The position numbers and the translations under genes were made by a program. A stretch of 16,595 nt of DNA from a bacterium (GTDB lineage: Bacteria > UBA10199 > 2-02-FULL-44-16 > DYJF01). The notes beneath the pieces were generated by a model, which was given only the letters and a program-made list of their open reading frames with translations, did no database searches and was not told the origin of the DNA. The stretch lies in assembly GCA_041739675.1 (NCBI GenBank), contig JBGSNL010000032.1:1-16595 (forward strand), given 5' to 3'. Shown one piece after another: positions 250-15,383 of the stretch (position 1 is the stretch's first letter; each line of letters begins with the position of its first letter).

Positions 250-780
250 ATGGACAATGCGAAGTCAAAACCGATCGTTGCAATTTTATCGGCAAGAGAG
301 GGTCTCCTGGGCGAGATTTTGTCTTCACTCAATGCCCGCTTCGGCAAAGAAGATCTTGTAGGGCCATGGCATCCGTTCGTGCATACGAATTATTATGCAC
401 CGGAGATGGGAGATAATCTTCAGCGCTGCATCGTCTCTTTTGAAAATAATATTTCGGCGGACGGACTTCCAAAACTCAAGATGTGGACCAAAGATATCGA
501 AGATAAATACCGCGTTGGCGACAAACGCACCGTGAATCTCGATCCCGGTTACGTCGATCTCCACAAAGTTGTCCTGGGTTCGGCCAAGGGCGGCGGGCAC
601 ATGATCATGGTGGGGGAAGGTGTCTATGCCGACATGCTCTTATATTACAACAAAGGCTGGCAGCCGATGCCCTGGGCGTACCCCGATTTCAAAGACGGGA
701 CGTATTCCGAAGAACTCGAAGAGATTAGAAAAATATTCAAATCCGGTCTTCACCGCACCGTGGCAAATGCGGGGCGCTGA
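250..780 (+). CDS. DUF4416 family protein
   Basis: Motifs TNYYAPEMG, RTVNLDPGY and PWAYPDF match my recollection of DUF4416. Start moved from 187 to ATG 250 (ATG 241 also possible) because the longer ORF would overlap the divergent gene start and promoter. Confidence 0.8.
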   Translation: MDNAKSKPIVAILSAREGLLGEILSSLNARFGKEDLVGPWHPFVHTNYYAPEMGDNLQRCIVSFENNISADGLPKLKMWTKDIEDKYRVGDKRTVNLDPGYVDLHKVVLGSAKGGGHMIMVGEGVYADMLLYYNKGWQPMPWAYPDFKDGTYSEELEEIRKIFKSGLHRTVANAGR

Positions 781-3065
781 AGGGTAAAAAGACTCCGCAA
801 TGTATTTGCAGCCGACGACGCCGGCCTCCTGCACAAAAATCCGCCGGAAACAATAGCTCTTTGGCGCGCTCTTGCGATATAAGCGGAGCGAGCGAGCGGA
901 ATCTCCACTGTTCTTCTGGCACCTTGTGAACCCGACGACACCTCGTTCGGATCGAAAGTGCCGGTTACCGTGCTCCCGCCCCCTTGCGCGGCCGGGCTGC
1001 CGTTGTTACCATTTTCACCGTTCCCGCCGGAACCTTGTCCATTGTTGCGAATTGCGCTTCTTGTGTCGACGCCCAGGCCCGCATTTATTTCAACCCACAA
1101 CTTTGCAAATTGTTCGAGACCGAGGGCATCTTTCTTTTCGGAGTCGAAATCCTCCCAGTCATCGATCAACGATTTTGCTCTCTGTTCGAGAATCCCGGGA
1201 TATGAACGAAGAGAGGGGTTCTTCTTTGCAATTGCGTCCATCATCTCCGCCAGACGGATATCTTTATAAACTGTCTCATCATTTTCGGCGTACTCCCAAG
1301 ACGTCTCCGCCTGCGCCATGTCGTAACGCTCGGACGTGCCGACCTCGAAAGAGGATTTTGCAATTCTCACAAACGAAGCCGGCAGGTGTCTTGAATCATC
1401 CCGCCTTCCGAATATCCTGCGCAGATTGATATTAGGAGGTGGGTTTTCCCAAACTGCGTTGAGACGTTCCGCTCTTGCATTGACGATTGAAAAGTCGAGT
1501 CTTTGCAGTTGAGGATTGAGTCTCAAAAGCTGCGCATAGATCGGCGCGAGCTTTCGCACATTGGCCATGTTTATACGCTGCTTCATGGCACGAATTTGCA
1601 ACTGCGGCAACTCGTCGGCGTTGATGCGCAAAGGGCTTTGCATAAAAATGTTCAGTTGCTGTTCGACCCCGTAACTGTTCCACTCTTCGGTTGTCATAGC
1701 TGCAGCATACATCCCCATCTCTTCAGTGAAATGCTGATCGGTCAAAAACTGTCTTCTCACGCCTTCGAGCGAGATCGCGGCATGGTGTCCGAAGATTTTC
1801 GACTCCGCTATTATTTTTTTGACCTCCAGCGCGAATTCCGAATCCGGCGACTCCTTCAACTCTTTCTTTATTCTGGCCAGCGCGGATGACCTTAGCTTAC
1901 TGACCATGTCGGGCGTCAAATATTTCGCGGCAACATACTTTATATGGCTGTGCGGCAGGTAACCGAAGAAAGGCCTGCTGTCCGCATGAAGCATCTGTTC
2001 AGCCGACTCTCGCTGTTTCTGAAGCCTTTCATCCCATCTGTCCACTGCAAGCAACGCGATGAACAACTGGACGAGTTCATTTTCCCTCATGAATATTTCG
2101 CTTTGCGCTGCCAAGTTTTCAAGTGTGATTCTTTCCCTGCGGTCCAAACTGGGATTTACCAATGCTTCATCGGCCTCCTGTCTCAATGCGCCGAACTGTG
2201 AGATGACGACCGACAGTTCGGGATTCCCCCTCAACGGATCGTTGGTGGGCTGAAATATCCTGATCTCGGGGTTCGTCTCGCGCAGCCTTCTTCTGCCCTG
2301 CGTCTCCTGGGTCTGACCTGTTCCGGTTGCATTCTGCGTCTGTTCGGCCCCGCGGTTTTGCTGTGGAGCCTTCTTTCTGAATATTTGGCCGGTGAATATA
2401 GATTTTGCCAATCTGCCGATTTTCACCAAGACATGGCCGAAGAAATACTTGATATTCTCGATCCCGCCTTCGAACGCCTTCATCAAATTCTTGGTGGCCG
2501 CGTTGAGCTTCGTGATCACGACGGCGAGTTGATTCACTACGCCTGCAAGGGCCTCCAGAATTTTTGTAAGAATGCCCAACTTATTAAGAAGATAAAGCGC
2601 GCCTGCTGTGGCACCGGTTATGATGCCAGGGATGCCTAATTTTTGGAGCCAGGAGGGCTCCTCATCGGGCGGCGGCGGCGGCTGGGTTCCTTGTGGGGGC
2701 GTCGCCTGGGCAAACGAGGATCCATTTTTTTCCCTGCAGCGATCATCGATGAGCTGGGCGACTTTTTCCTTATTATCTATAGCCAGTATACAGGTATATG
2801 AATCTGCGGCAACGCTGCGGGCGAGTATGTTCTGAATAAAAAGATTTTTGTCCGAATCTGAAAGGTATCTGCACTGCGGCGCATTGTTGACGATCGATTG
2901 CATGTCCTCAACAAGTGTGGCGCAGTCGTTTTTGGTAAACCAGTCTATAGGATTTTCCGAACAGGAAGAATCGTCTGAGCAATAAGTGCCGCTCAATGGA
3001 TAGATATAAGGCCTGATCGTGGGGAGCCACCCCTCATCGACGAGGCGAGATTCTGGTATGCCCAT
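750..3065 (-). CDS. Orphan paralogue A (771 aa), predicted membrane-anchored hypothetical protein with conserved C-terminal motif
   Basis: Long ORF with RBS AAAGGAGG (3077-3070). Six Cys in the N-terminal region, then PPQGTQPPPPPP, a hydrophobic stretch LGIPGIITGATAGALYLL, a helical body, STVTGTFDPNEVSSG (930-974) and an Arg-rich tail. No recognisable family. Confidence 0.85.
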   Translation of the reverse strand: MGIPESRLVDEGWLPTIRPYIYPLSGTYCSDDSSCSENPIDWFTKNDCATLVEDMQSIVNNAPQCRYLSDSDKNLFIQNILARSVAADSYTCILAIDNKEKVAQLIDDRCREKNGSSFAQATPPQGTQPPPPPDEEPSWLQKLGIPGIITGATAGALYLLNKLGILTKILEALAGVVNQLAVVITKLNAATKNLMKAFEGGIENIKYFFGHVLVKIGRLAKSIFTGQIFRKKAPQQNRGAEQTQNATGTGQTQETQGRRRLRETNPEIRIFQPTNDPLRGNPELSVVISQFGALRQEADEALVNPSLDRRERITLENLAAQSEIFMRENELVQLFIALLAVDRWDERLQKQRESAEQMLHADSRPFFGYLPHSHIKYVAAKYLTPDMVSKLRSSALARIKKELKESPDSEFALEVKKIIAESKIFGHHAAISLEGVRRQFLTDQHFTEEMGMYAAAMTTEEWNSYGVEQQLNIFMQSPLRINADELPQLQIRAMKQRINMANVRKLAPIYAQLLRLNPQLQRLDFSIVNARAERLNAVWENPPPNINLRRIFGRRDDSRHLPASFVRIAKSSFEVGTSERYDMAQAETSWEYAENDETVYKDIRLAEMMDAIAKKNPSLRSYPGILEQRAKSLIDDWEDFDSEKKDALGLEQFAKLWVEINAGLGVDTRSAIRNNGQGSGGNGENGNNGSPAAQGGGSTVTGTFDPNEVSSGSQGARRTVEIPLARSAYIARARQRAIVSGGFLCRRPASSAANTLRSLFTLQRPAFATVR

Positions 3066-3091
3066 AGAACCTCCTTTGCCCCCATCCAGCC

Positions 3092-3123
3092 AAAAATAAG
3101 GCCCTCCGCACTTGGAGGGCCCC
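3092..3123 (-). terminator. GC-rich stem-loop with U-tract just upstream of the orphan A RBS (intrinsic terminator/attenuator, or 5' leader hairpin)
   Basis: Minus strand GGGGCCCTCC-AAGTGC-GGAGGGCCTT followed by ATTTTT: 8 Watson-Crick pairs plus 2 G-U pairs. The hairpin is certain; its function is not. Confidence 0.5.
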
Positions 3124-3131
3124 CAATAAAG

Positions 3132-3160
3132 GCCTTATTTGAATTAGCGACCGTAGTCAA
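3132..3160 (-). promoter_or_regulatory. Candidate sigma70-type promoter of orphan A
   Basis: TTGACT(3160-3155)-17 nt-TAAGGC(3137-3132), 66 nt before ATG 3065. Same geometry as the candidates for orphans B and C, but a weak -10. Confidence 0.35.
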
Positions 3161-3455
3161 TTCCCAATCCATACGGCGCCTCCTGTTTCTTCGTTTCACT
3201 CAGGTTTGCGCCATCCCCAGAATGGGCAGCAGGGGTTTCAGCTTATCACGTGAAATTTTCCGGGTTATGACGCGGGATATCAATGAGAAAAAATCGGGTG
3301 TGTATTTTACCACCCATTTGCATAAAACGTGCTGAAAAAAAGGATCGGAGGCTGAGGTATTTTCAACCCGTGATAATTGAAGGAATATGGACGCGGCTGT
3401 ATACTTGGTTCGGCCCAAAACATCTTATCGTGAAGAATGGATTTGCAGGATAAAT

Positions 3456-3839
3456 TCAGTCGGAAGAACTCCCGGCCGTTATCTTTCGAAGGGTCAGTGA
3501 AAGTTGGCCGGCGGACTTATTCCCTTTTTGCTTTGGAGTTTCTACGGCGAAGCGGTCCTGTGCAAGGCCCCTTATTTCATCGACAAGCGATTCACTCGAG
3601 CCGTGATAGCTTCCTTGATATTCTATGAGTCCCTTGCTTGATAAGGTTGGGGAGAGCCTCGTCACCTGCGCGGACCTTTTGAGATTTGTGATGAGATAGC
3701 GCACGTCGTTGAAATTTGCGGCCCCTATAACGGTGACGCTTAAAGGGAGATCTTCCGATAGCTGGGATTCTTGCGCTTGCGCCGCGGCAAGAAACGAGAG
3801 AAGAGCAAAAATTGTGAGGACAAGTGTTTTTATCTTCAT
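3456..3839 (-). CDS. Small exported protein (127 aa) with Sec signal peptide
   Basis: MKIK-hydrophobic core-AQA cleavage motif. The mature part alternates beta and alpha segments, reminiscent of a ferredoxin-like or DUF2066 C-terminal domain (unverified). Start overlaps the upstream stop (ATGA, 3839-3836). Confidence 0.75.
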   Translation of the reverse strand: MKIKTLVLTIFALLSFLAAAQAQESQLSEDLPLSVTVIGAANFNDVRYLITNLKRSAQVTRLSPTLSSKGLIEYQGSYHGSSESLVDEIRGLAQDRFAVETPKQKGNKSAGQLSLTLRKITAGSSSD

Positions 3840-4057
3840 AATGATGAGAGTGAAAACGATTCGACGCGTTCAATTTCTATCATGGCCCTGTCTTCGCCGT
3901 TCGCGATTATAATTGTTCCGTTTTCCACGTCAACGCGTTTCAAAACGCCAGTGTAGAGTATGCCGAAAGCTATGATCTCGACGCGTTTTCCCTTTGCGTC
4001 GATGAGGGCGGCGATGAGAGGATCGTCTTCAATTGGTTCAGCTTGCTTCTTTGCCAT
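3836..4057 (-). CDS. Small hypothetical protein (73 aa), probable Sm/LSm-like beta-barrel
   Basis: An N-terminal helix followed by GKRVEI...GILYTGVLKRVD...TIII...AMIEIERVESF resembles the Sm1/Sm2 pattern. Coupled to the next gene and preceded by its own promoter candidate. Confidence 0.65.
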   Translation of the reverse strand: MAKKQAEPIEDDPLIAALIDAKGKRVEIIAFGILYTGVLKRVDVENGTIIIANGEDRAMIEIERVESFSLSSL

Positions 4058-4063
4058 GCGCCC

Positions 4064-4092
4064 TTAGTAGCGTATCGGCAATTTGAGGTCAA
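4064..4092 (-). promoter_or_regulatory. Candidate leaderless sigma70-type promoter for the 73-aa/127-aa operon
   Basis: TTGACC(4092-4087)-17 nt-TACTAA(4069-4064)-6 nt-ATG(4057); no RBS. Confidence 0.5.
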
Positions 4093-4104
4093 GGAAAGCC
4101 GCTT

Positions 4105-5619
4105 TCAACGCACGGACACTCTGAAAGATGTCGGAGGTGCCACACGCACTGGCGCTAGCGCGAAGGCGCGGGCGCCCAGGAAAGCGCGGTGCGAAACCTG
4201 CGGCGCTCGCGCTCCCCAAAAAACCCTGAGGCTTGAAGCTATTCTGTGGAGCGTACCCTGCGGTGTGCCCGACGCGCCGCCCGACGAAGTTTCATTGGGT
4301 TCAACCAATCCTGTGACCGTGCTGCCACCTGCGGGGGTTGCCCCTCCCGAACCATTTCCGCCGTTCGAGCGGGGTGTCATGGCTGCTGCGGCGCGACGCG
4401 CCAACTCTATGTTTTCATCGGTCAAAGCCAGATCGATTATGTTTTGAGGAAGCTCGCCGTACCTGAAAACACGGGTCAAATCGATGGAGGCTATTCTATC
4501 CTCCTCCAACTGTGTCCGCCAGAAGACGACGGCGGATAAGTAAAGGGCGTGCTTAATCTCGCGCGATTCGTTTTTAAGTGAAGCCTTTTTAACTACGAGC
4601 TGATCGACAATTTTCCCCTCGTCTAACTGAGCGTCTATTTTCGCCGCAATTCGGAGTGCGGCTTCGTCACGGAGAATCTCCCGATTCTTTGCGGTGAGCA
4701 TGTTCTTGGCGAACGCCCTTGCGTAACCCCAAGGCAGGCTGTGCGGCGGCCTCCCCTCTTTATCCAGATAAATGTGGATTCTCTGTGTTATAGGACGCTG
4801 GGCCTCGAATCTCTCGATGGCCAGATCGGAAACATAATTTTCCACTTCGCGCTCAAGCCCTTTGAAGAACTCAGGCGCCTCCGCTCTGAGTTGATCCAAA
4901 ACCTCACCACGTCCCAACTGCAGATTTTCTTTCTTACTGCTGAAAATATTGGCGATGTTTTCCAACGCAACGAAAGCGCCGACAAGCTTGGTGAGCCCCG
5001 CCTGAAATTTTCTAACCGCAATGGCTGCCGCGGAAAGCAGTCCGCCGACGGCGGTCAGGGTAGCGACGACTGCGGTCGTGTTCTCGTCGAGAAAGCTTAC
5101 AAAATCCTCCCACGGCGAAGTGGCAGGCGGTGTCTGCGTTGGGGGAGGGGGTGGAGGATTTTGACCGCTCGCGGGAATTGTCTGTCCCGCCTCGTCATCT
5201 TCATCACCCCGTGCCTCCTCAACACTTCGGCAGAAATCGGAAAGTTTTTCCATTCCATCCACGTATCTGTCTGCGTTTTCACCCGACGGATCGATCTCTC
5301 TCAGGTATGAGACGGGCTCGTGCGTGTGCGGTCCGGTCGGCGCGATGCTTCCAAGCCATCTCAAATAGTCCGCACAAAAATATTCCGTTCCAAGATATGA
5401 ATGCTCCACACCACCGGTTTCGGGGTAATCAAGTTGCACTTGCTCGTGGCCGCCGTCAACCGGCGCAACGGGCCAGTTTTCGCTATTGCTCCCGCAAAAG
5501 GTGTCCGCTCTGGGTTCTGTGAACTCTGCGACGGGGTGATTTTCAACCAGGCTACATATCGGTCTTTGAAGCGCGCAAACGAGATCTTTGTCTGCTGTGA
5601 TTGATATGGGGGTGCTCAT
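4105..5619 (-). CDS. Orphan paralogue B (504 aa), predicted membrane-anchored hypothetical protein with conserved C-terminal motif
   Basis: Start reassigned from 5847 to ATG 5619 (MSTPISI...) because RBS AAGGAGG lies at 5630-5624 and the longer version overlaps orphan C. Five N-terminal Cys, GQNPPPPPP, hydrophobic TAVVATLTAVGGLLSAAAIAV, STVTGLVEPNETSSG (4279-4323) and an Arg-rich tail. Confidence 0.85.
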   Translation of the reverse strand: MSTPISITADKDLVCALQRPICSLVENHPVAEFTEPRADTFCGSNSENWPVAPVDGGHEQVQLDYPETGGVEHSYLGTEYFCADYLRWLGSIAPTGPHTHEPVSYLREIDPSGENADRYVDGMEKLSDFCRSVEEARGDEDDEAGQTIPASGQNPPPPPPTQTPPATSPWEDFVSFLDENTTAVVATLTAVGGLLSAAAIAVRKFQAGLTKLVGAFVALENIANIFSSKKENLQLGRGEVLDQLRAEAPEFFKGLEREVENYVSDLAIERFEAQRPITQRIHIYLDKEGRPPHSLPWGYARAFAKNMLTAKNREILRDEAALRIAAKIDAQLDEGKIVDQLVVKKASLKNESREIKHALYLSAVVFWRTQLEEDRIASIDLTRVFRYGELPQNIIDLALTDENIELARRAAAAMTPRSNGGNGSGGATPAGGSTVTGLVEPNETSSGGASGTPQGTLHRIASSLRVFWGARAPQVSHRAFLGARAFALAPVRVAPPTSFRVSVR

Positions 5620-5678
5620 GATGCCTCCTTGATGCGGGCCGATCGCACCCCCCGGATGAATCGCCCGAAAACACCAGT

Positions 5679-5707
5679 TGTCTAGCGCATTGGGCGCCCA
5701 CCCGCAA
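5679..5707 (-). promoter_or_regulatory. Candidate sigma70-type promoter of orphan B
   Basis: TTGCGG(5707-5702)-17 nt-TAGACA(5684-5679), 59 nt before ATG 5619. An imperfect leader hairpin at 5635-5667 precedes the RBS. Confidence 0.5.
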
Positions 5708-5716
5708 GCGGTTTTT

Positions 5717-8700
5717 CTAGAGTGCAGGTACCGTTGAGACCGCCGGCCGCGCAAGAACGGCGGGCCTGAATACCGAAGCCGGGCGAGCCGTATAGGTCGC
5801 CGGCCTGTGAGCGACCTGTCTTTGACGTCCGAAAAGAATTGAAGCACCAGTGGTCACGGGCGAGCTGTCCATGGGGGCCAAACCGGCGCCGGTTGACAGC
5901 TCTTCAGGATCGAAAACCCCGCTCACCGTGCTTGTGCTCTCTTGTTCCGGCGATGAAGCTCTTTCACTTCCATCGACTGGTTGCCCACCACCCGCGACCT
6001 GTCCGCCCTGTGCAGCAGGTGCGGCGCCGCCGCGAGGCGTGCCGCCGGATCCTTCCCCGCCGCGTTTCTTCGCATCTTCTCGCTTCTCGGCATAATGCCA
6101 CATGAGTACGTCAAGGACGTGCGGATAATGTGCAAGACCCGGGTGTTCCGCAAGCAGTTCCCCTTTGGCCTGTCTTCGTCCGTCGACAAGTATCCCGGAA
6201 TCATAATTTATGTCGAACCTACTGCCTTCTTTGAAATAGAAACCCAGTTCGTCGTTGCGGTCCGCAACGGCCAGCATAAAGTCAGTGAAGAGGGGCGGAT
6301 AATGACCGGACTGTTTGCCACCCAAGGCGTCCTGAAGCGGCCGGGGCATTTTTCCCCAGACCTCATCCAACTCTCTCAATTTCGGATGGGCATATTCATT
6401 AATAAATAGATGCATGAATAAGCGAGGCACTCTGAAAACTCCGTCATGTTCAGAGAAGAATGGTTTTCTGAACGCAAGAACGGCAAGCTGACCCAGGTAG
6501 TTTCCGTTTGTTTCGGTTCCGCCGACGGAAGACGAAGAAAAGATGGCCCTGATTCTGGAGCTCAGATGCTCTTCATCGAGAGTTTCGATCTCATCGGCGG
6601 TATCGCGGAATTGTCTCAAGAAAGGATCCTTCGAGAGAGATGCGGCCTGCTCCCTTATGAATTGGGCATCCGGCGGATCGATCGACCTTCCTTTCAGGAG
6701 GAGCCATCTGAATTCTATGATGCGTGCTATTGTGGGTACGTCCGAGTAATCTAATTCCAGCGTTCGACTGAGCGTGTCACTTATGACCAGCACGTATTGT
6801 ATGTTGTATGACAAAATACCGTAGAGTTGCGCGAACGGACGTGTGCTTAAGACACGATAGTGCGACTGCGCGGGTTGTGCCGGGGATACCGGCCGGCTGC
6901 GCGTCAGCACAGGACGAGATCTCTCCGGCTCGCTCCGCGCCGATTCTGTCGCGGTTGACGTTGCTTCTTGTTGTGCGGCTCTCACAGGAGCCGATTTGAT
7001 GGAGTGCGCCATCGTTTCCTGGCGCTCAGTCGCGATGTGATCGGAGAGCCGTCTGAAAATGTTTCCGTAATGGAGAAGGACCGGATTTCTGTGCGCCAGC
7101 TCGTCATCCACAGCTTTTGCTATTGGCGATCTTGGATCAACAACGCTGCGCGGATAATCGATTCTGATCGGCCTTTCATCTCTTTGCAACATGTGGTCGA
7201 TATCAAGTCCGTGTTTTGCGGAAAGCATCAGCTCTATGAAAAGTGACGGATATTTGTTGCCGCTCTCTATTGTCCCGAGCGCCCTTTGAAGCTCTTCAGG
7301 CATCCTGTTCCACACATCCTGCAATTCTTTCACTTTCCGCAGTGCGAATTCGATTCTGAATAAAGTTACAAATAGGCGGTCAATATTGAAGCGTGAATTT
7401 TGCCTACTGAAAAAGGAACGTTCAAATGCGGACATCGCGAGTTGAGAAAGATACCGCGCAGTTTGAACATCATATGGGTCGAAAGTGATCATGCGATCAT
7501 AAATGAAGCGATGCAAACCTTCGCGGTCTTGAGGTATTTCAACAAGGCCGGGAAATTTATTCCGCAGTGCCCAGGCCTCTTTTATTACGAATACGTCGGG
7601 AGGGATGCGCTCTTTCGAAGACATGTGATTAAGGGATGTGTTCGGGTGCGTCGTTACCAAGTGCAATTGCCAACGGAACATGACGGCTTGCGCTATCGTT
7701 TCTATGTATTCATCCGGAAGACCAATATAGGCAAACTCACGCTTGACCATGTTGGTAAGATAAACATAGGACGCCGGAGAAATATCGAACGCCTCTAGAT
7801 TCATTATATAGCGCGCCGGCTCCGGCGTTTGAGACTCGGTTGACTCCTCGACGCGCGAAGGGGCGGCCACTGAAACTTCAGGTTCGCGGCTGGCACTTAG
7901 AAAAGGAACATCCGACGCGGGAGGGATTGAAAGGATTCCCGATGGCGCCTGCGGTGCCGGCCTTATCCTTGGCGCCGGAGCGTGCAGTCTCGCAAGATAT
8001 CTTTGCGGGATCGGACCGCCTGTGTAGCCGTAATCCTTTTTTTGTGTCTTGTGCGGAATTTTGTTCCAGCCCTTTACAATCTCTTCCGCTCGTTCATCGA
8101 TGGCTTTGAAACCTTTGCGCGCAACTTCAGGCTCGTTTCCCTCAACCCATCTGAAAACATGAGCCAACTTCAAAAGGGGCGGAATTATCTGCGGCCAGAG
8201 TGTTCTTCTATGTGTCCGCGTCGAACGAGAAACTGTGTGAATGAGCCATTGTTCAGATTGCTCGACAATCTTCTGCGAGAGTTCGCCGCCCGGCGTTTGT
8301 TTTCCCACATAGGGGGCCATTCCCATTGCGGCAAAATACGAAATGACGACATCCATATCTTTATCACTACCGATGCCTAACGCTCGCAGCCGCTCACCAT
8401 AAGTTGTCCTATATTGCAGAGCCACCTTCTGAGGGTCGAGCTGAGAATTTGCGGGGAGACCTTGCGGCGTGGCTGGAGTATCCGGCGCCGGGGGAGCTTC
8501 CGAATCCGAAGCGGGAGGAACCACTGAGAACAGTTTGCGCAAACCGGACCATATACCAAGCGGCGCCGGGGCAAAAGGCATGAAAGCATGTGCCCACCAT
8601 GGATCACTCGCACCTGCTCTCACAGTGCTCGTCGTGACGGTTCCTCTTGAAGGAACTGCTCCCGGCTCACCACTTCCTGCCGTTCCCGCACCGCCTGCTC

Positions 8701-10108
8701 CGCTGGTGCCGCTTGTTCCATTGCCGTTTGTCGCAGATCTGTTTTGCGCAACTGCAAGGCGCGCGTTCGCAAGGACGACCACAAAATGTGAATACGAGGC
8801 GAGCTCCGGGTTGGCCGCGACTATCGAGCGGCGTTCGGCAGTCAGGGCGCCGGTTTGCGGCAGGCCGTCCATGTCAACCGGTGCTGCGTCACGCTCGAGG
8901 ATCCGGGCAAGATTTTTTTCAAGTTCAGCATTCAGATCCAGCGCAAGCATCATTTCGTAGAAGACATCAGGGTAAGAATCGGATTGGCCGGCAGGTCTTC
9001 CCATTGCATTGCGAAAAATTTCAGGCATCAGGGCCCACGCGTTTTTCAGCTGATCTTCCAGCCTTGGCTTGGCATTATTCAAAAACCATGTCTCAAGGAG
9101 AGGAGGTAGCTCGCCGGGCCTCGCGATAAGATCCTGAGAGGTGTTCGATACGAACCATTCCCGCCGGCGGGGAGCCATGATGTCGCGCCACATTAGAAAC
9201 GCCGTCGAGCCAAGATAATCGCTGAAGTAGGATCCGTTGCCCATGCGCCTTCTGAACTGCGCTCTTACGACCCTTTCCTTTGTCACCCGCGTGACGGCAT
9301 TTGCCATGACCTCTTTAGAGACGCGAACGTAACCGCCCGCCCTCTCGTTTGCCGCTATGCGGCCATCGGGTGAGGCCAGCGGATATTGGGCAATGTAGCC
9401 GCCGATATCCAATGATGGCAAAGCGTTGGTGGCGTTAGCGGGTTTATAGTGATCGATCACTTCTTGAACATAACTATCGATCAGGCGCTGGACATAGTAT
9501 TGTCTAGCGTTCTGCGAAAGATCGAAGAGAGGCAGACGAAAATCAGTGCTTAAACGATCCTGAAGGAGATCGTAGTTGGGGATATACCGCCCCACATAAA
9601 GATTAAAATCGTCCATCAGTTTTAACAGGGTCTGGGCCGCCGGGCGCGGCGCGCTTTGTGGGGAAGATGCAACGGATGCGCTGTCTCTGCGCCGAAAAAG
9701 CGATGAAAGCCCCATGAAAATCATCATGGGACCCGGTGAAAGCGGGATGCCGCGTTTTTTTAACCACTCTGCCAATTTCGGGATGCGCTTCGTCATCCAA
9801 TCGGGCATGGATGGAGGAGTTTTTTCATGCCAGAACTTGTCAGGCCAGAGCCTCTGAAGGCACCAGTAAATGCCGCCGACAGCCAGGAAGCCAAGGCTCA
9901 TGCCGACGAATGCCCAAAAATATGTTCCCCTGTCGATTTCCTCTTCCCCGCTCGGCGGGGGGTTGTCGGTTCCGCCCACTTGTGTGCATGAGCAGTAAGA
10001 ACCTCTTTGCTCGTCATCTACGCATTCACATTCTTGCGAAATTGTTGGTTGATCCGGGTCGATAAACTGCAGAGGGATTTTTGAAGATGTGACACCTGGG
10101 GTAGTCAT
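5717..10108 (-). CDS. Orphan paralogue C (1463 aa), membrane-anchored repeat protein with conserved C-terminal motif
   Basis: 4.4-kb ORF with RBS AAGGAG (10125-10120). Contains CECx9CSC, DNPPP, transmembrane-like YFWAFVGMSLGFLAVGGIYW, three internal domain copies, STVSGVFDPEELSTG (5888-5932) and an RPA-rich tail. Confidence 0.9.
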   Translation of the reverse strand: MTTPGVTSSKIPLQFIDPDQPTISQECECVDDEQRGSYCSCTQVGGTDNPPPSGEEEIDRGTYFWAFVGMSLGFLAVGGIYWCLQRLWPDKFWHEKTPPSMPDWMTKRIPKLAEWLKKRGIPLSPGPMMIFMGLSSLFRRRDSASVASSPQSAPRPAAQTLLKLMDDFNLYVGRYIPNYDLLQDRLSTDFRLPLFDLSQNARQYYVQRLIDSYVQEVIDHYKPANATNALPSLDIGGYIAQYPLASPDGRIAANERAGGYVRVSKEVMANAVTRVTKERVVRAQFRRRMGNGSYFSDYLGSTAFLMWRDIMAPRRREWFVSNTSQDLIARPGELPPLLETWFLNNAKPRLEDQLKNAWALMPEIFRNAMGRPAGQSDSYPDVFYEMMLALDLNAELEKNLARILERDAAPVDMDGLPQTGALTAERRSIVAANPELASYSHFVVVLANARLAVAQNRSATNGNGTSGTSGAGGAGTAGSGEPGAVPSRGTVTTSTVRAGASDPWWAHAFMPFAPAPLGIWSGLRKLFSVVPPASDSEAPPAPDTPATPQGLPANSQLDPQKVALQYRTTYGERLRALGIGSDKDMDVVISYFAAMGMAPYVGKQTPGGELSQKIVEQSEQWLIHTVSRSTRTHRRTLWPQIIPPLLKLAHVFRWVEGNEPEVARKGFKAIDERAEEIVKGWNKIPHKTQKKDYGYTGGPIPQRYLARLHAPAPRIRPAPQAPSGILSIPPASDVPFLSASREPEVSVAAPSRVEESTESQTPEPARYIMNLEAFDISPASYVYLTNMVKREFAYIGLPDEYIETIAQAVMFRWQLHLVTTHPNTSLNHMSSKERIPPDVFVIKEAWALRNKFPGLVEIPQDREGLHRFIYDRMITFDPYDVQTARYLSQLAMSAFERSFFSRQNSRFNIDRLFVTLFRIEFALRKVKELQDVWNRMPEELQRALGTIESGNKYPSLFIELMLSAKHGLDIDHMLQRDERPIRIDYPRSVVDPRSPIAKAVDDELAHRNPVLLHYGNIFRRLSDHIATERQETMAHSIKSAPVRAAQQEATSTATESARSEPERSRPVLTRSRPVSPAQPAQSHYRVLSTRPFAQLYGILSYNIQYVLVISDTLSRTLELDYSDVPTIARIIEFRWLLLKGRSIDPPDAQFIREQAASLSKDPFLRQFRDTADEIETLDEEHLSSRIRAIFSSSSVGGTETNGNYLGQLAVLAFRKPFFSEHDGVFRVPRLFMHLFINEYAHPKLRELDEVWGKMPRPLQDALGGKQSGHYPPLFTDFMLAVADRNDELGFYFKEGSRFDINYDSGILVDGRRQAKGELLAEHPGLAHYPHVLDVLMWHYAEKREDAKKRGGEGSGGTPRGGAAPAAQGGQVAGGGQPVDGSERASSPEQESTSTVSGVFDPEELSTGAGLAPMDSSPVTTGASILFGRQRQVAHRPATYTARPASVFRPAVLARPAVSTVPAL
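6075..9540 (-). repeat. Three diverged protein-level domain repeats (about 250 aa each) inside orphan C
   Basis: Cores: WALMPEIFRNAMG..YPDVFYEMML..NPELASY (W at 9037); WNRMPEELQRALG..YPSLFIELML..NPVLLHY (W at 7312); WGKMPRPLQDALG..YPPLFTDFML..HPGLAHY (W at 6358). Boundaries approximate. Confidence 0.8.
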
Positions 10109-10170
10109 GTCTTATGGTTCTCCTTGTTTCAGGCGGTAAGTCCCCAGTGCCTTACGCCCGCGATTGGCGG

Positions 10171-14666: not shown

Positions 14667-15383
14667 ATGACCGTGAACAAAATAGGTTCGGCGACGATGG
14701 GCCTGCCGCCCACATGGATGGCAAGGGCGGCCGCGGCGGGCGGGGCGATAGGAAACGCCGACGAGATCAAAAAGATTTTGGGCGAACCCATCCCGCAGAT
14801 CGCCGATCCCAAGACAATTCCGCCTCACATCGCGGAGATGTTCGAAACCGGCGGCCTGCTCGATCGGATGAGAAGAAAGTTGGCGCTCATATCGAGAAAG
14901 CGCGGGCGCAAGATCATTCCCGCAAGAAACACCATTGCATCCGTTGATGAAGAGGATAATCTCTACGTTGGCGTGGATTTTCTGGAAAAGTACGGCGATA
15001 ACGAGGCGCTCATCGCCGCTGTTCTCGCGCACGAATGGGGCCACATGATGAGCGATCTGCCGCGCGGGATAAACTGGTCGCGCCTCACATGGGACGAGCT
15101 CCACGCTATAAGGAGAGAGGAAGAGGCCGACGCGGACGGTTTTGCGGGCAGGGCGCTCTTTCTCATGGGATTCAAACCGGACGAGATGATAAAATTTTTA
15201 AAAGACCTCGATAAGAAGAGGAATAAAAATATTCCATGCCACAAATACCACAACACTCCCACGCGCGTTGAAATATTGAAACAATCCTACGATGCCGAGA
15301 AACGCGCAATGGAAGTGGCGCGAAGGCTTTTCTTCGGTTCCACCGTCGGCGCAAAAGTTGGCAGGGTTATCACTTCAGGATAA
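14667..15383 (+). CDS. M48-like zinc metallopeptidase domain protein
   Basis: AAVLAHEWGH (HExxH), downstream REEEADAD third-ligand motif, LFLMGF-P and a late H..R segment (YHNTPTR). No signal peptide or transmembrane segment seen. Confidence 0.75.
   Translation: MTVNKIGSATMGLPPTWMARAAAAGGAIGNADEIKKILGEPIPQIADPKTIPPHIAEMFETGGLLDRMRRKLALISRKRGRKIIPARNTIASVDEEDNLYVGVDFLEKYGDNEALIAAVLAHEWGHMMSDLPRGINWSRLTWDELHAIRREEEADADGFAGRALFLMGFKPDEMIKFLKDLDKKRNKNIPCHKYHNTPTRVEILKQSYDAEKRAMEVARRLFFGSTVGAKVGRVITSG

Follow-up and report, generated by a model that had tools for sequence, protein, structure and literature searches.

Positively charged C-terminal signals are known from type IV secretion systems (T4SS), among them those of the VirF type and that of Bartonella, in which a BID domain is combined with a basic tail. 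The effectors of the bacteria-killing T4SS of Xanthomonadales are diverse proteins with one C-terminal domain in common, the XVIPCD, which is read by VirD4 (PMC8047123). For substrates of type III secretion systems (T3SS) the same source describes Ser/Thr/Pro-rich N-termini and N-terminal signals and chaperone-binding domains, and its available parts mention no shared C-terminal domain on dozens of substrates. Myxococcus xanthus has a needleless T3SS (T3SS*), consisting of an export apparatus and sorting platform without a secretin of its own, for which a hand-over of effectors to the Kil pilus system has been proposed (PMC12075869, PMC12428579); the accessible text names neither effectors nor a C-terminal tag for it. 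In Bdellovibrio, the attack-phase FliA regulon has a TTAAG-N16-CCGATA promoter before many uncharacterised genes (PMC3627812). Here we describe a C-terminal element, referred to as the tag, that is shared by three large genes (A, B and C) on contig JBGSNL010000032.1 of bacterial assembly GCA_041739675.1. The window analysed, 16,595 nucleotides, is the entire contig C2 of this genome (G000; 1.91 Mb, 94.6% complete). The tag recurs throughout the genome and is compared below with the systems just listed.

A profile iterated from the C-termini of A, B and C over the 9065 open reading frames (ORFs) of G000, with iE<1e-3 as cut-off, converged on 37 ORFs, in all of which the match starts 67-78 residues before the C-terminus; the best value among reversed-ORF decoys was 0.46. 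A further six cases are weaker; a contig end truncates one of them, another lies 128 residues from the end, and with these six the genome-wide count is 43 (4.5% of the genome). The tag occupies the last ∼75 residues, and consists of a core, STVTGLxxTGETSGG, and a tail rich in Arg, Ala, Val and Pro that is essentially free of acidic residues and Lys (R 14.6%, K 0.2%, D+E 1.6%). A strict pattern for the 15-residue core matches only A, B and C (3 of 9065 ORFs). The Gly and Glu of the core are invariant, while their synonymous codons are used freely and third codon positions are scrambled. None of the tails contains a membrane helix (the maximum 19-residue Kyte-Doolittle value among the 37 is 1.23), and a motif-free screen on tail composition picked 40 of 857 proteins, 33 of them tagged. 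Apart from a few small families, the tagged bodies are mostly unrelated orphans, and many of their genes sit in tandem arrays. Only three of 39 tagged proteins contain Pfam domains over the cut-off (RelA/SpoT-type HD, HATPase and SNF2). The initial annotation had seen mainly a three-member membrane-protein family; this is not borne out, as the proteins that bear the tag number about 40 and are for the most part soluble and unrelated to one another.

Searches of the 37 tags against Pfam and NCBIfam returned one weak, single-member match each (E 0.054 and 0.016), and no chain in the PDB matched. Against 1.84 billion representative proteins the tag profile gave 32 matches, of which 31 are G000 proteins and one is an internal repeat in an unrelated protein; a degenerate DNA pattern run over metagenomes gave three matches, none of them a tag. 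In the accessible parts of the literature on UBA10199, needleless T3SS effectors, Bdellovibrionota T3SS, C-terminal signals and sigma-28 T3SS regulons, which do not extend to supplements possibly holding effector lists of the Myxococcus T3SS*, no description of such a tag was found. The shared ending is a real, undescribed tag system; for about 4.5% of a genome rich in orphans, it provides a defined list of cargo that can be tested.

Like the XVIPCD, the tag is one conserved C-terminal element on diverse proteins, but it has no sequence match, its tail is basic and acid-free, and the genome has no VirD4 or VirB4 family match. With the basic T4SS signals it shares an Arg-rich C-terminal tail and the lack of a signal peptide, but differs in the conserved 15-residue core that precedes the tail and in that no T4SS was found. 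A short motif near the C-terminus followed by basic residues also recalls LPxTG, MYXO-CTERM, PEP-CTERM and GlyGly-CTERM signals, and some cores read LAETG or LIETG; unlike those signals, however, the tag has no membrane helix after the motif and no signal peptide, its Thr-Gly is not invariant, and no sortase was found (0 of 6 genomes; exosortase-type enzymes were outside this search). Judged from sequence, the tag works like the XVIPCD or the basic T4SS tails, yet it lacks the features by which members of these classes, or of the sortase/CTERM class, are recognised.

The same-genus sister genome, G001 (83% complete), contains at least 23 tagged proteins with the consensus V[ST][GA]LL[PD]SGE[AT], and in 20 of the 21 measured the core lies 48-63 residues from the end. 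Of 17 scanned, five have domains over the cut-off: two HATPase, one ABC1 kinase and two DUF7790. The tag profiles of the two genomes align over a 16-column core only (E 4e-5). Cores classify by genome and not by orthology, in 54 of 55 leave-one-out tests, with a contrast reached in none of 5000 permutations; in seven of nine orthologue pairs the G001 core is less like that of its orthologue than like the mean of its own genome. Beyond G001 the tag was not recovered. The G000 profile had no match in 40 relatives, and since it misses even the drifted tags of G001, which was among the 40, such absence is weak evidence. Over 22 genomes of the order, the G001 profile gave five matches outside the genus at E 0.12-0.35, none a tag on inspection; ∼400 kb of one relative (G007), inspected by eye, contained no such tag; and profiles built from the tails of A orthologues matched only themselves. 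Some G001 proteins (L068, L072, L074 and L047:11025-17438) have duplicated or internal copies of the core, which suggests that domains were added behind an older tag.

Genes A, B and C lie on the minus strand with the lengths first reported. Gene A (750..3065) encodes 771 residues, comprising a Cys-rich head (29-110), a poly-Pro stretch, a weak membrane segment (∼147-187), a repeat body, a Gly linker and the tag, whose core lies at 930..974 (residues 698-712) and whose Arg-rich, acid-free tail lies at 753..929. Gene B (4105..5619; 504 residues) has an ATG start with an AAGGAGG site, although its open frame begins upstream at GTG 5847, corresponding to 580 residues; its core is at 4279..4323 (residues 433-447) and its tail at 4108-4278. 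Gene C (5717..10108; 1463 residues) has a short Cys-rich head, a membrane segment at residues 66-84, several copies of the repeat unit, a core at 5888..5932 (residues 1393-1407) and a tail at 5720-5887. The order of parts noted initially is present in all three, down to the basic tail, with the body putatively helical, and by eye their N-termini show no Sec/Tat signal. Cys residues are confined almost entirely to the heads (6 of 7 within residues 29-110 in A; 5 of 5 within 15-130 in B; 4 of 5 within 27-41 in C, the fifth being in the membrane segment), and poly-Pro lies at residue 129, 155 and 50, respectively. Each protein has a single hydrophobic segment (19-residue Kyte-Doolittle 1.63 in A, weak; 2.13 in B; 1.75 in C) followed by Lys/Arg. 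The position of the Cys residues and the Lys/Arg after the segment predict a topology with head outside and body inside. This full design of Cys-rich head, poly-Pro and membrane segment is restricted to A, B and C, and the C-terminal tag is the only element that occurs genome-wide: among the 37 tagged ORFs, three are Cys-rich, four have poly-Pro and seven a hydrophobic segment.

Overall identity among the three is low, as first described, and pairwise BLAST is significant for the C-terminal motif alone (E 1e-5 to 3e-4). The body alignment that had been quoted for A and B is not significant in such a comparison (E 0.3-0.6); the body homology it implied does appear, however, with a body-only profile of eight A orthologues, which detects the bodies of B (E 4.4e-7) and C (E 9e-8), the best of 1000 shuffles being 0.18. 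With scores so far beyond the shuffles, the paralogy of A, B and C is real, if distant. The element common to the three bodies is a repeated unit, W-x2-[ML]P...[LYI]P-x2-F. Their orphan status stands: no family in Pfam, NCBIfam or PHROG matches any of them, and A, searched as protein and as alignment against a set of 5.8 billion proteins, matched only itself (∼8000 candidates scored each time). Sequence searches of the PDB with A, the tag, and the small neighbouring genes E and D (see below) gave no match under E 0.4, and the Atlas held no usable match for A.

Orthologues of A occur in 8 of 92 other genomes searched in the class (9 of 93 including G000), all within one order. One of these, of 1120 residues (G012, L059:700-4062), carries an extra hydrophobic, coiled region at its C-terminus where the tail would be. 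In G001 the block is syntenic, in the order C, B-slot, E, D, A, and the C orthologue has 2137 residues. Identity to the same-genus orthologue is 25% for A and 35% for C, compared with 65-88% for neighbouring housekeeping genes, as expected of the lineage-specific, diversifying paralogues originally proposed. Strain contigs from three runs of two other studies match A, D and E, for the most part at 95-99%; stretches of B and C without cover were not counted, except where a contig joins across them. B occupies a strain-variable slot, as it is uncovered in these three strain runs and is replaced in G001 by a different tagged protein of 283 residues. One strain contig joins 4101 to 5742, skipping B, with a short side of only 26 letters. 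Another (X3 record 18) retains the first 45 codons of C (9974..10110, minus strand; 4 differences) and the tag region (31 differences over 5803-5952) around a different middle of ∼1450 nt, against 4020 in G000. The conserved ends around variable cores of the initial annotation are therefore seen directly between strains, and indicate that bodies are exchanged between fixed ends.

A scan of G000 for secretion loci gave a non-flagellar T3SS, and neither a T4SS nor a sheath protein of a type VI secretion system (T6SS) or other contractile injection system. SctV is over the cut-off, SctU and SctJ are best matches just under it, a TPR chaperone-like gene is present, and an SctN/R/S/T-like cluster, recognised by motif and similarity, is kept in relatives; SctU directly follows a four-gene tagged array on contig C37. 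SctV occurs in 40 of 41 genomes of the class. No secretin belonging to the T3SS was found in G000. The genome has genes for a type II secretion system (T2SS) and a type IV pilus, with ATPases of the GspE, PilB and PilT types only (no Tad-type ATPase is among its PF00437 matches). Two secretins are present in each of four genomes of the family, their best matches in G000 being GspD and PilQ, and one of them could be shared. This arrangement may resemble the Myxococcus T3SS* in having an export apparatus for which no secretin of its own was found, but differs in that no Tad ATPase was found and that, as a lead from the Atlas, a filament-subunit-like gene is present. That gene (L025:8756-9280, or C5:16755-17279 of G000) encodes 174 residues with a needle- or filament-subunit-like C-terminus; its Atlas neighbours are Myxococcota hypotheticals, and one cluster is 11% PF09392. 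The T3SS here may accordingly not be needleless.

A sigma-28-like promoter, GCAAC(T/C)TTT-N10-GCCGATAA, lies before 16 of 39 tagged genes and 44 of 1531 others (p 5e-14), as scored with a matrix trained on sites that are not before tagged genes; G000 has 77 such sites against 13 in the reversed genome, and the box is found in six of six genomes of the order and in none of the controls. The only FliA-type sigma factor found is encoded inside the T3SS cluster, its gene being divided between contigs C5 and C87. In G000, two T3SS genes, the filament-subunit-like gene and its neighbour, have a promoter variant with a 12-base spacer before them, and this form is present in all eight T3SS loci of relatives examined, two of which have identical sites. 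Among the listed positions of the regulon are C5:16691, C5:18777 and window 11274 (plus strand), the latter before a PilZ gene. The CCGATA box and the many uncharacterised genes are reminiscent of the Bdellovibrio FliA regulon, but here the upstream box reads GCAAC, the search of G000 for flagellin found none, and the sigma factor is encoded within the T3SS cluster. The N-termini of tagged proteins are also biased: G/S/P/T/D make up 43% of residues 2-21, whereas untagged genes of the regulon reach 31% and other genes 27% (p 1e-13, 38 vs 1300 genes), and 13 of 38 start with M-x(0-2)-[SAP]-[GA]-[GDAEP], compared with 24 of 1300 others. Ser/Thr/Pro-rich N-termini of this kind are described for T3SS substrates (PMC8047123). 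With these N-termini, their diverse bodies and, for part of the set, a promoter like that of apparatus genes apart from its spacer, the tagged proteins resemble classical T3SS effectors, and the set combines a T3SS in the genome with the absence of Sec/Tat signals and a biased N-terminus.

The evidence bears directly on the tag, its fixed C-terminal distance, selection at the protein level, genome-specific drift, cassette exchange between fixed ends, a promoter that many tagged genes have in common with T3SS genes apart from its spacer, and a T3SS-type N-terminal composition. The reading that we favour, at about an even chance of being correct, is that the tagged proteins are cargo of the T3SS, with the tag as a C-terminal docking label read by one partner. 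The earlier proposal of an exported or translocated system is supported by a T3SS elsewhere in the genome, while export itself and its route we infer. Disordered Ser/Pro/Gly/Thr-rich N-termini would start export, and the short core, as a strand and turn, would bind a receptor. With all tags read by a single receptor, any change in that receptor would shift every tag consensus of the genome together, and many tags following one reader is the best explanation of the drift of cores by genome; such a reader should be findable by co-variation. The 50-residue basic tail would come into play at the end, either in passage through a secretin or in entry into and anchoring in a target cell. A secretin borrowed from the T2SS or the pilus is proposed because none was found for the T3SS. 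A, B and C would be a membrane-inserting subclass, whose head would be outside and whose repeat body and tag would reach into a cytoplasm. Judging by the cargo domains (ppGpp-hydrolase-type HD, histidine-kinase-type ATPase, ABC1 kinase, SNF2), the proteins would act in a cytoplasm, more likely that of a prokaryote; as these domains are of bacterial type, the target is most likely another prokaryote. A tentative extension, which may well be wrong, is an uncultured predatory or parasitic lineage with a two-signal, two-step type III pathway. N-terminal export via a secretin-less T3SS would come first; the 75-residue tag would then take some 40 interchangeable effectors over the outer membrane or into the target cell, and co-evolution with a single receptor would adjust the whole tag set anew in each species. 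If the tag does serve the T3SS, type III substrates would have a C-terminal domain in common, on a route that is usually regarded as reading N-terminal signals only, and there would be a handle on how a secretin-less T3SS releases its effectors, a question left open in the available parts of PMC12075869 and PMC12428579.

Several observations weigh against the T3SS cargo reading. The tag was found only in two genomes of one genus while the T3SS is class-wide. Orthologues of A outside the genus have no core: those of G005, G013 and G021 have acid-poor tails without it, and the tail of the G007 orthologue is acidic. Genes behind the sigma-28-like promoter in five relatives (G002, G005, G006, G007 and G013) are likewise without the tag. 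In G000, 23 of the 39 tagged genes have no promoter site directly before them, many of these genes being members of arrays, and A, B and C are all without the box (0 of 3), A having instead its own conserved promoter-like box and terminator before its start. The sites fall into two spacer classes, 12 for T3SS genes and 10 for tagged genes, and Sec-exported and housekeeping genes belong to the regulon as well, so that it marks a stage and not a route. The N-terminal bias depends on heuristic start calls, and no chaperone gene was recognised beside the tagged genes, though no dedicated search was made. Finally, most G001 tags were found with profiles already holding G001 tags, which favours sorting of the cores by genome.

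A role of the tag inside the producer is a rival reading that we consider doubtful. Here the tag would be an address or turnover label by which proteins of a late stage are brought together on a scaffold, a nucleic acid or a protease, and A, B and C would be resident inner-membrane proteins with Cys-rich heads in their own periplasm, perhaps with gene D as partner. Arg-rich tails can bind nucleic acids, A belongs to an order-wide conserved E-D-A block with its own promoter, several cargo domains are similar to signalling proteins of the cell itself (the HD domain matches C41:6639), and synonymous changes account for 18 of the 33 variant codons listed for A. Cassette swapping between strains, orthologue identities of 25-35%, tandem arrays and T3SS-type N-termini nevertheless fit exported conflict proteins better, and heads of 60-230 residues without a signal peptide need an export route.

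Injection into a eukaryotic host, with the tail acting there as an organelle- or membrane-targeting peptide, is unlikely. The composition of the tail is like that of mitochondrial and plastid targeting peptides, its helical moment is slightly raised (0.594 vs 0.551 +/- 0.017 in shuffles), and the bodies are poor in Lys (K/(K+R) 0.31 vs 0.53). A conserved core upstream of the tail is foreign to such peptides, however, no eukaryote-like domains were found in the 39 + 17 tagged proteins scanned, and neither G000 nor G001 has a match to the ATP/ADP translocase family. Very unlikely is a classical C-terminal signal of a T4SS or type I secretion system (T1SS) that is missing from the assemblies. Incomplete genomes (94.6% and 83%) leave room for such a system, and basic C-terminal tails and conserved C-terminal domains such as the XVIPCD are T4SS features (PMC8047123), but G000 has no VirB4 match, no coupling protein is matched in G000 or G001 and one weak match occurs in 22 genomes, the T1SS adaptor HlyD is not over the cut-off in any of six genomes (best 36 bits vs 209), and 62 P-loop candidates judged by eye include no unexplained large ATPase. 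In a last reading, gene conversion would have spread a DNA repeat or a low-complexity artefact, with no function in the protein, to form the shared ends. Tags on contigs C36 and C37 that are near-identical in DNA beyond the stop codon speak for this, but it is highly improbable given the invariant Gly and Glu encoded by all of their synonymous codons, a codon scrambling that contradicts it, the fixed distance from the stop, a second genome conserved at 16 columns only, and negative decoys.

Between B and A lie two small conserved genes, E and D, absent from the earlier gene list; the E-D-A block is kept across the order. Gene E (3836..4057, minus strand; 73 residues) is conserved at 56-86%, overlaps the start of D, and is LSm-like by weak matches only (LSm6/SmAP, E 0.4-0.7). 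Gene D (3456..3839, minus strand; 127 residues) has a signal-peptide-like N-terminus, evolves fast (30-41%) and stands beside A in the loci of five relatives; its match to PilN (E 0.06) is below the cut-off. The leader of A (window 3066-3340) contains a promoter-like box (3319..3333, minus strand), conserved in an alignment of eight genomes, which we take to be sigma-54-like from its consensus. It is followed by a GGGT..ACCC inverted repeat, conserved in the same number of genomes, and by a terminator-like hairpin (3098..3123, minus strand) 33 nt before the start of A, which is also present in G001 and is a possible attenuator. No Rfam family was found in the window or in this leader. Elsewhere in the window, 14667-15383 (plus strand) encodes a 238-residue protein with a HEWGH zinc-protease motif and a weak M48 match, and G002 has a 65% orthologue of it, two genes behind a sigma-28-like site (L163).

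Some further proteins of G000 lie close to the tagged set. Two (C86:9037-10260 and C34:289-2664) have a basic, acid-free tail without the core, and the G001 orthologue of the first has the core. Two large orphans (C47:12837-16865 and C18:7957-9572), which come after tagged genes and extend beyond the end of their contigs, are probably further members; the former has a weak match to SipB (E 0.009, under the cut-off). In G001, a glycerol-3-phosphate dehydrogenase gene (L047:17535-18570) is in two frames, through a frameshift or assembly error, and inspection of G007 by eye pointed to a prophage-like region (L097-L102) that includes genes resembling gas-vesicle and restriction genes. Three large untagged proteins of the sigma-28-like regulon in G000 (C25:17610-21590, C20:10285-13734 and C45:653-4465) have a different common C-terminal ending, two of them ending alike in SLFGIF..ET...LL.K...E, and the first also resembles the tagged family of contigs C36 and C37 in its N-terminal leader and body.

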